The position numbers were made by a program, and so were the translations under genes. From a virus (taxonomy: Duplodnaviria; Heunggongvirae; Uroviricota; Caudoviricetes): a stretch of DNA of 37,278 nt. The notes beneath the pieces were generated by a model, which was not told where the DNA came from, made no database searches, and saw only the letters and a program-made list of their open reading frames with translations. The stretch lies in IMG/VR virus record IMGVR_UViG_2872698443_000007. One strand, written 5' to 3'. Below, piece after piece: positions 1 through 1,353 of the stretch; positions within the stretch are counted from its first letter, which is position 1, and each line of letters opens with the position of its first letter.

Positions 1-102
1 ATGCAAACCGTTATTTTTGGTCGTTCGGGTTGCCCTTACTGTGTGCGTGCAAAAGATCTGGCTGAGAAATTGAGCAATGAACGCGATGATTTTCAGTATC
101 AG

Positions 103-111
103 TATGTAGAT
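103..111. repeat. 9-bp target site duplication TATGTAGAT (left copy)
   Basis: Identical 9-mer directly abuts both IS ends (103-111 and 1169-1177). It is the grxA codon stretch Y-V-D. Confidence 0.85.
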
Positions 112-1168
112 GGCTTTGTTGAATAAATCGAACTTTTGCTGAGTTGAAGGATCAGATCACGTATCTTCCCGACAACGCAGACCGTTCCGTGGCAAAGCAA
201 AAGTTCAAAATCACCAACTGGCCCACCTACAATAAAGCCCTTATCAACCGTGGCTCCATAACTTTCTGGCTGGATGATGAAGCTATTCAGGCCTGGTATG
301 AGTCAGCAACACCTTCTTCACGAGGCAGACCTCAGCGCTATTCTGACCTTGCCATCACTACTGTGCTGGTCATTAAACGCGTATTCAGGCTGACCCTGCG
401 GGCTGCGCAGGGCTTTATTGATTCCATTTTTTCTCTGATGAACGTTCCGCTACGCTGCCCGGATTACAGCTGTGTCAGCAGGCGGGCAAAGTCGGTTAAT
501 GTCAGTTTCAAAACGCCCACCCGGGGTGAAATCGCACACCTGGTAATTGATTCCACCGGGCTGAAGGTCTTCGGTGAAGGCGAGTGGAAAGTCAAAAAGC
601 ATGGCCAGGAACGCCGCCGTATCTGGCGTAAGCTGCATCTCGCCGTTGACAGTAAAACACATGAAATCATCTGCGCTGACCTGTCGCTGAACAACGTTAC
701 GGACTCAGAGGCCTTCCCCGGGTTAATCCGGCAAACCCACCGGAAAATCAGGTCAGCCGCCGCCGATGGCGCTTACGATACCCGGCTATGTCACGATGAA
801 CTGCGGCGTAAGAAAATCAGCGCGCTTATCCCTCCCCGAAAAGGTGCGGGTTACTGGCCCGGTGAATATGCAGACCGTAACCGTGCAGTGGCTAATCAGC
901 GAATGACCGGGAGTAATGCGCGGTGGAAATGGACAACAGATTACAACCGTCGCTCGATAGCGGAAACGGCGATGTACCGGGTAAAACAGCTGTTCGGGGG
1001 TTCACTGACGCTGCGTGACTACGATGGTCAGGTTGCGGAGGCTATGGCCCTGGTACGAGCGCTGAACAAAATGACGAAAGCAGGTATGCCTGAAAGCGTG
1101 CGTATTGCCTGAAAACACAACCCGCTACGGGGGAGACTTACCCGAAATCTGATTTATTCAACAAAGCC
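112..1168 (+). mobile_element. IS903-family insertion sequence (IS5 family, IS903 group), 1057 bp
   Basis: Left end GGCTTTGTTGAATAAATCGAACTTTTGCTGAG at 112. Right end ...GATTTATTCAACAAAGCC at 1168 is its perfect 18-bp inverted copy. Length 1057 bp with one transposase ORF, flanked by 9-bp direct repeats. The end sequence matches my recollection of IS903/Tn903 ends. Confidence 0.85.
144..1112 (+). CDS. IS903-family DDE transposase
   Basis: Single long ORF filling the IS between its inverted repeats. The frame opens with a non-ATG (TTG) codon at 144; the true start may be slightly downstream. Confidence 0.8.
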   Translation: MKDQITYLPDNADRSVAKQKFKITNWPTYNKALINRGSITFWLDDEAIQAWYESATPSSRGRPQRYSDLAITTVLVIKRVFRLTLRAAQGFIDSIFSLMNVPLRCPDYSCVSRRAKSVNVSFKTPTRGEIAHLVIDSTGLKVFGEGEWKVKKHGQERRRIWRKLHLAVDSKTHEIICADLSLNNVTDSEAFPGLIRQTHRKIRSAAADGAYDTRLCHDELRRKKISALIPPRKGAGYWPGEYADRNRAVANQRMTGSNARWKWTTDYNRRSIAETAMYRVKQLFGGSLTLRDYDGQVAEAMALVRALNKMTKAGMPESVRIA

Positions 1169-1177
1169 TATGTAGAT
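1169..1177. repeat. 9-bp target site duplication TATGTAGAT (right copy)
   Basis: Identical to 103-111; a 9-bp duplication is characteristic of IS903-group elements. Confidence 0.85.
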
Positions 1178-1353
1178 ATTCGTGCGGAAGGGATCACTAA
1201 AGAAGATCTACAACAAAAGGCAGGTAAACCCGTAGAAACCGTGCCGCAGATTTTTGTCGATCAGCAACATATCGGCGGCTATACCGATTTTGCTGCATGG
1301 GTGAAAGAAAATCTGGACGCCTGATCGTCTGACAAGCCCTCGCGTTGAGGGCT

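Follow-up and report, generated by a model that had tools for sequence, protein, structure and literature searches.

The window analysed here, a stretch of 37,278 nucleotides, opens with the first codon of grxA, the gene for glutaredoxin 1 (Grx1), which is split into two fragments by an insertion sequence (IS) of exactly 1,057 bp, as read directly from positions 1–2400 (Table 1). The IS follows codon 37, because the nine bases at 103–111 are codons 35–37 of the gene; the preliminary description of this DNA had placed the split at the same codon, and all of its coordinates and counts were correct. Upstream of grxA lie rimK-nfsA-ybjC, and downstream lie ybjM, in convergent orientation, and ybjL; the gene thus occupies its conserved position in the order ybjC-grxA-ybjM-ybjL, and the intact loci of other strains have the same arrangement. 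The window holds no uninterrupted grxA ORF for the full thioredoxin fold. Over its first 2,400 bases it matches the chromosome of Escherichia coli DETEC-P61 (NZ_CP116152.1) with 100% identity, and the window as a whole corresponds to positions 2,959,749–2,997,026 of that record, bar one inverted phage segment. DETEC-P61 is an ST48 strain with blaNDM-5 obtained from a rectal swab of an ICU patient in Guangzhou (PMC10100714); the paper on the strain makes no mention of IS903, nfsA or nitrofurantoin (PMC10100714). RefSeq annotates the locus as two grxA pseudogene halves around an IS903B-family transposase, the downstream half being labelled as a GrxA-family pseudogene with a missing N-terminus at 1157–1324; grxA::IS903B is already on record there, and the type of insertion is an ordinary and known one.

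Table 1 Features of the interrupted grxA locus, with positions numbered from the first base of the window
Feature	Position	Strand	Remarks
grxA 5′ fragment, codons 1–37, including the CPYC active site C11–C14	1–111	+	RefSeq: grxA pseudogene, C-terminus missing
Target-site duplication TATGTAGAT, left copy	103–111	.	grxA codons 35–37 (Y-V-D); single copy in the relatives' empty site
Complete IS903B (IS5 family, IS903 group)	112–1168	+	1,057 bp; 99.9% full-length identity to plasmid copies
Left terminal inverted repeat (IRL), GGCTTTGTTGAATAAATC	112–129	+	Includes the TAA that closes the truncated grxA frame
Transposase gene	144–1112	+	Same direction as grxA; Pfam and NCBIfam matches; RefSeq WP_000654812.1
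Right terminal inverted repeat (IRR)	1151–1168	-	Perfect complement of IRL
Target-site duplication TATGTAGAT, right copy	1169–1177	.	Abuts the right end of the IS
grxA 3′ fragment, codons 38–85 and TGA stop	1178–1324	+	No active site; in-frame start GTG 1241 only
Terminator-like hairpin of grxA	1334–1354	+	9-bp stem followed by a T-rich tail; between grxA and convergent ybjM

Joining 1–111 directly to 1178–1324 yields a 258-bp gene encoding 85 amino acids and a stop, so that the reconstructed grxA is intact, as had been stated earlier. Its sequence does not differ at any base from the intact grxA carried by strain 2017.17.03CC, and its product agrees at all 85 residues (85/85, 100%) with the solved E. 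coli glutaredoxin 1 of PDB entries 1EGO/1EGR and matches both GrxA equivalog models (NF008401, 164 bits, cut-off 84; TIGR02183, 148 bits, cut-off 106.5). In the interrupted gene, the first 37 codons, which encode MQTVIFGRSGCPYCVRAKDLAEKLSNERDDFQYQYVD, are continued by four codons of the IS (GFVE) before a TAA stop at 124–126, giving a 41-aa product that retains CPYC and spans positions 2–29 of the 60-position Pfam Glutaredoxin profile. Because no more of the profile than this is covered, we infer that the interrupted gene is a null allele with loss of Grx1 activity.

The assignment of the insert to the IS903 family in the preliminary description was right in substance and can be made more precise. 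The terminal inverted repeats (GGCTTTGTTGAATAAATC) had been called perfect, and they are so over 18 bp, the two ends being the only matches to this sequence in the 37-kb window even when up to three mismatches are allowed (chance expectation 0.02); weaker complementarity between the ends reaches 33 nt (79%). The 9-bp target duplication is likewise as clean as first described, with TATGTAGAT occurring exactly twice in the window and both copies abutting the ends of the IS (chance expectation 0.08). A composite transposon, or a further copy of IS903B in the window, was considered and rejected, the inverted repeat being present only at the two ends of 112–1168. Over its 1,057 bp the IS is 99.9% identical to many plasmid copies from Klebsiella, Escherichia, Enterobacter, Citrobacter and Shigella, the best of which differ from it by one nucleotide; the name IS903B is taken from these matched copies, which carry the PGAP designation 'IS5-like element IS903B family transposase'. 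The reference length of IS903 is about 1,057 bp. A 9-bp target duplication is its published hallmark and is documented for IS903 in Table 1 of PMC2577343. Length, 18-bp inverted repeats, 9-bp duplication, a single DDE transposase and near-identity to IS903B copies all agree with the IS903 group and, judged by these features, the element is IS903B, which in ISfinder terms belongs to the IS5 family, IS903 group.

The single gene of the element has an ambiguous start, either TTG at 144 (the choice of PGAP, giving 322 aa) or GTG at 189 (giving 307 aa). Its product matches the Pfam domains DDE_Tnp_1_5 (PF13737, positions 1–112 of 112, E=3e-40) and DDE_Tnp_1 (PF01609, E=7e-33) and the NCBIfam model NF033579 for IS5 family transposases (357 bits against a cut-off of 140). 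Residues D121, D193 and E259, together with Y252, R255 and K266, are all found in the 307-aa frame; we take these positions to be the catalytic DDE and Y-R-E-K residues of IS903 in 307-aa numbering. As the ORF at 144–1112 contains neither a frameshift nor an internal stop, and as both ends of the element are intact, this IS903B copy looks competent for transposition.

The preliminary description had also proposed that the IS could drive expression of the downstream grxA fragment. Several IS families create outward or hybrid promoters, and in this locus the 3′ fragment is codirectional with the transposase gene, so that read-through transcripts are possible. The right-hand side of the insertion nevertheless offers little to a mobile promoter acting on the 3′ fragment or on the genes beyond it: a consensus scan of positions 1–2000 returned no sigma-70-like site directed outwards at the IS right end, the sole promoter-like site being at 204–233 within the transposase gene; the sole in-frame ORF of the fragment, from the GTG at 1241, encodes 27 aa without CPYC; and the fragment is followed by the terminator-like hairpin (folding at -17 kcal/mol, z=-2.0) and then by ybjM on the opposite strand. 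The proposal is not supported by these results and we regard it as exceedingly improbable; expression of the 3′ fragment, even if it occurred, would have no functional consequence.

The age of the insertion was read from close relatives. A 6-kb query comprising grxA, ybjM, ybjL and the prophage junction was 100.0% identical over 4,934 bp to S163-2 (from a pangolin, Guangzhou) and TUM9754 (Japan), 4,934 bp being 6,000 minus 1,066 bp, the length of the IS and one duplicate. With the IS and one TATGTAGAT taken out, a base-by-base comparison of DETEC-P61 with these two strains covered 10,934 bp and showed 0 mismatches, and the empty site of the relatives reads ...cagTATGTAGATattcgt..., with the 9-mer in single copy; set against the uninterrupted grxA locus, the difference is exactly the IS and one duplicate. 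The three strains have in common an IS30 insertion in nfsA and a P2-like prophage beside ybjL, with grxA intact in S163-2 and TUM9754. Since such near-identical relatives share nfsA::IS30 and the prophage but keep the empty site, the grxA insertion is both recent and private to the strain. The order of events is clear from these loci: prophage integration and nfsA::IS30 are the older, lineage-wide changes, and grxA::IS903B is the last, strain-private one. The earlier view of a recent event thus stands, with its junctions found in one of 5,426 complete E. coli genomes, and the empty site of the relatives backs it much more strongly than does the intact duplication alone.

The same comparison bears on the reality of the insertion. 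Copies of an IS are a classic source of misassembly, and five places on the DETEC-P61 chromosome match IS903B, so hybrid assembly might conceivably have put a copy into grxA by mistake. An error of that kind would not, however, yield a perfect 9-bp duplication at both junctions, nor would it give an exact 1,066-bp difference from the relatives; furthermore, the phage segment is oriented differently in the window and in the RefSeq record, yet the insertion is identical in both. We put the chance of an assembly artefact at almost nil, and treat the IS as a genuine insertion in what follows.

The P2-like prophage occupies approximately 3900–37278, just downstream of ybjL, and runs from ogr to the integrase gene, at which the window ends; in the collection of 5,426 E. 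coli genomes, about 850 have matches to 80% or more of the opening 6 kb, in which this end of the prophage lies. Within it, a 1,859-bp segment at 11844–13702 is the exact reverse complement of NZ_CP116152.1, the rest of the window being identical. The segment is flanked by imperfect inverted repeats (11832–11858 and 13688–13714) and adjoined by a recombinase gene (11195–11776, minus strand), and is the invertible tail-fibre (host-range) segment of the prophage. The orientation of the window gives an intact tail-fibre ORF of 474 aa (13326–14750, minus strand), where RefSeq has pseudogene fragments; the occurrence of both orientations suggests that the invertase is active in culture. Cargo-like genes were found at 26030–29040 (minus strand), between the portal gene and a DinI-like gene. 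One is an AIPR-family gene (26030–27796, minus strand; 588 aa) with a PADLOC match to AbiU (E=5e-24) and a weaker one to MzaE, and the second encodes a 290-aa DUF6236 protein without a match among the defence models; the pair is probably a phage-carried abortive-infection module.

The nfsA gene on the other side of the locus has its own history of IS insertion. In NZ_CP116152.1 an IS30 lies in the 3′ end of nfsA (positions 737–2570 of the extracted locus, about 1.2–2.3 kb upstream of window position 1), where it replaces the last 15 residues of NfsA (PFILDYLHKQGWATR) with 18 IS-encoded residues (CRFNLSMQHPFQLSLSVF); it is found at the same extracted-locus positions in S163-2 and TUM9754 and predates the grxA insertion. 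Strain 2017.17.03CC (NZ_AP027829.1) has an independent IS903B that splits nfsA (extracted-locus 1501–2557) with the duplication CTGCCACGG and differs from the window copy by 9 mismatches, and GDSC2239PM has, according to its annotation, an IS5-family element in nfsA. IS insertions in this neighbourhood cluster in nfsA, not in grxA.

We surveyed the same 5,426 complete E. coli genomes for the junctions of the insertion, for the IS and for the gene itself. The one genome with the junctions is DETEC-P61, while 1,994 genomes contain IS903B-like sequence; given this abundance and the five matching places on the DETEC-P61 chromosome, a donor copy of the IS was available. The first 50 kb of the plasmid pDETEC37 contain no IS903B, the elements there being an ISKpn26 pseudogene, IS1, IS26 and others. 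grxA was found over at least 80% of its length in 5,408 genomes, as a partial match in 10 and not at all in 8. DETEC-P61, E. coli P276M and EcPF5 are three of the 10 genomes with a match below 80% of the length: in P276M (NZ_CP044293.1) grxA is independently disrupted by IS1A after about codon 28 (extracted-locus 1501–2535), and in EcPF5 a partial match to 52% of the gene occurs in two places.

The site itself is a poor one by the known preference of the element. IS903 favours the target motif WTTYA-N9-TRAAW (PMC2577343), and the duplication in grxA is preceded by ATCAG (2 of 5 positions matching) and followed by ATTCG (0 of 5), that is, 2 of 10. Judged by its flanks, the grxA site is a non-preferred one for IS903, permitted and not predicted; the motif is a statistical preference, and the membership of the element in its group is unaffected. 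Three findings led us to reject a hotspot or recurrent target: no second genome has the junction, the motif is poorly matched by the flanks, and 5,408 of the 5,426 genomes carry a full-length grxA.

End binding, a staggered cut and gap repair are the established steps of IS903 insertion, and the anatomy of the locus is consistent with a single, simple IS903B transposition into the chromosomal grxA of DETEC-P61 or its immediate ancestor. The DDE transposase would have bound both 18-bp terminal repeats, strand transfer would have linked the element to the ends of a staggered cut, 9 bp wide, in grxA, and gap repair would have duplicated TATGTAGAT. The predicted outcome is a 41-aa stub, made of 37 Grx1 residues and GFVE, in which over half of the thioredoxin fold is missing, together with a 3′ remnant of grxA that could not be translated. 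Apart from the poor match to the target motif, the sequence holds no evidence against simple transposition. Taken together, a single recent IS903B transposition, private to this strain, that produced a null and likely neutral grxA allele is almost certainly the right explanation, its mechanism being read from the anatomy of the insertion.

E. coli possesses the redundant disulfide reductases Trx1, Trx2, Grx2 and Grx3, and because of this redundancy the insertion is most likely selectively neutral. The preliminary description had raised the prospect of a redox phenotype, against which published work on peroxide stress can be set. grxA is induced 20–30-fold by OxyR under H2O2 (PMC10751367), and deletion of grxA together with trxC left cytoplasmic thiol oxidation and growth unchanged over 20–50 generations of chronic H2O2 stress (PMC10751367); in Table 1 of that study, Grx1 is entered with the role 'Reduce OxyR' and with 'No' for an H2O2 phenotype. 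On these findings, a strong redox phenotype of grxA::IS903B is not expected, and this part of the preliminary description is not borne out; a subtle effect of losing grxA, such as a slower switch-off of OxyR, is possible.

One might argue instead that the insertion was selected, the loss of Grx1, as the reductant that turns OxyR off, prolonging the peroxide response or otherwise aiding a carbapenem-resistant coloniser of the ICU gut. The assigned role in reducing OxyR speaks for this, as does the grxA trxC mutant, which slightly outcompeted its parent under H2O2 in minimal medium (PMC10751367 Fig. 8B), and so do the second, independent disruption of grxA by IS1A in P276M and the fact that the neighbouring nfsA was likewise hit by an IS in the DETEC-P61 lineage. 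The reported advantage, however, required co-deletion of trxC and a catalase/peroxidase-deficient background (PMC10751367), and the genomes speak against it: grxA is full-length in nearly all of them (5,408 of 5,426), the insertion does not recur at its site and is confined to one genome, and S163-2 and TUM9754 have kept grxA intact. We consider selection highly unlikely and neutrality the better reading.

The orientation of the element allows a further, more speculative consequence. The transposase gene is in the sense direction relative to grxA, its alternative starts lie 144–189 bp downstream of the grxA start, and a structure scan found no terminator-like structure between the grxA start and the transposase gene. 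Because the transposase gene is thus codirectional with, and close to, the retained OxyR-dependent promoter, with no such structure between them, read-through from PgrxA could occur. This would make the transposase inducible by oxidative stress, and the loss of Grx1 could prolong OxyR activation, so that the two effects might form a small self-reinforcing circuit; we give this reading, the inducible transposase included, a very small chance of being real. If it were, the mobility of IS903B would be raised under host-derived peroxide stress.

For the biology of the strain the insertion matters little, being a textbook simple IS insertion that made a pseudogene of a redox gene, itself dispensable and redundant, in one clinical isolate. 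Its value lies elsewhere: it is a clean and datable marker that separates DETEC-P61 from the otherwise identical S163-2 and TUM9754, it points to IS903B as currently mobile in an ST48 blaNDM-5 background, and it provides a natural grxA null allele that can be used to ask why OxyR induces Grx1.

Compared with the IS903B copies on enterobacterial plasmids and chromosomes, the element described here is of the same length, ends in the same 18-bp inverted repeats, is likewise flanked by a 9-bp duplication and encodes one DDE transposase; what sets it apart is its insertion site. The disruption of rimK-nfsA-ybjC-grxA genes by an IS is likewise seen in grxA::IS1A of P276M, nfsA::IS903B of 2017.17.03CC and nfsA::IS30, each of which involves another element, another gene or both. 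We know of no resistance linked to the disruption of grxA, whereas IS disruption of nfsA is presented in PMC8767348 as an established route, or first step, to nitrofurantoin resistance. In Klebsiella pneumoniae, cases such as those reported in PMC10569121 illustrate how IS903B/ISKpn-type insertions inactivate mgrB and lead to colistin resistance; in those cases the same element and the same knockout mechanism are recurrent and colistin-selected, whereas the insertion in grxA occurs in a single genome and is not known to confer a selectable phenotype. Laboratory K-12 deletions of grxA share the predicted loss of Grx1 and are engineered; unlike them, the DETEC-P61 allele retains the OxyR-controlled grxA promoter, which now stands ahead of a transposase gene.
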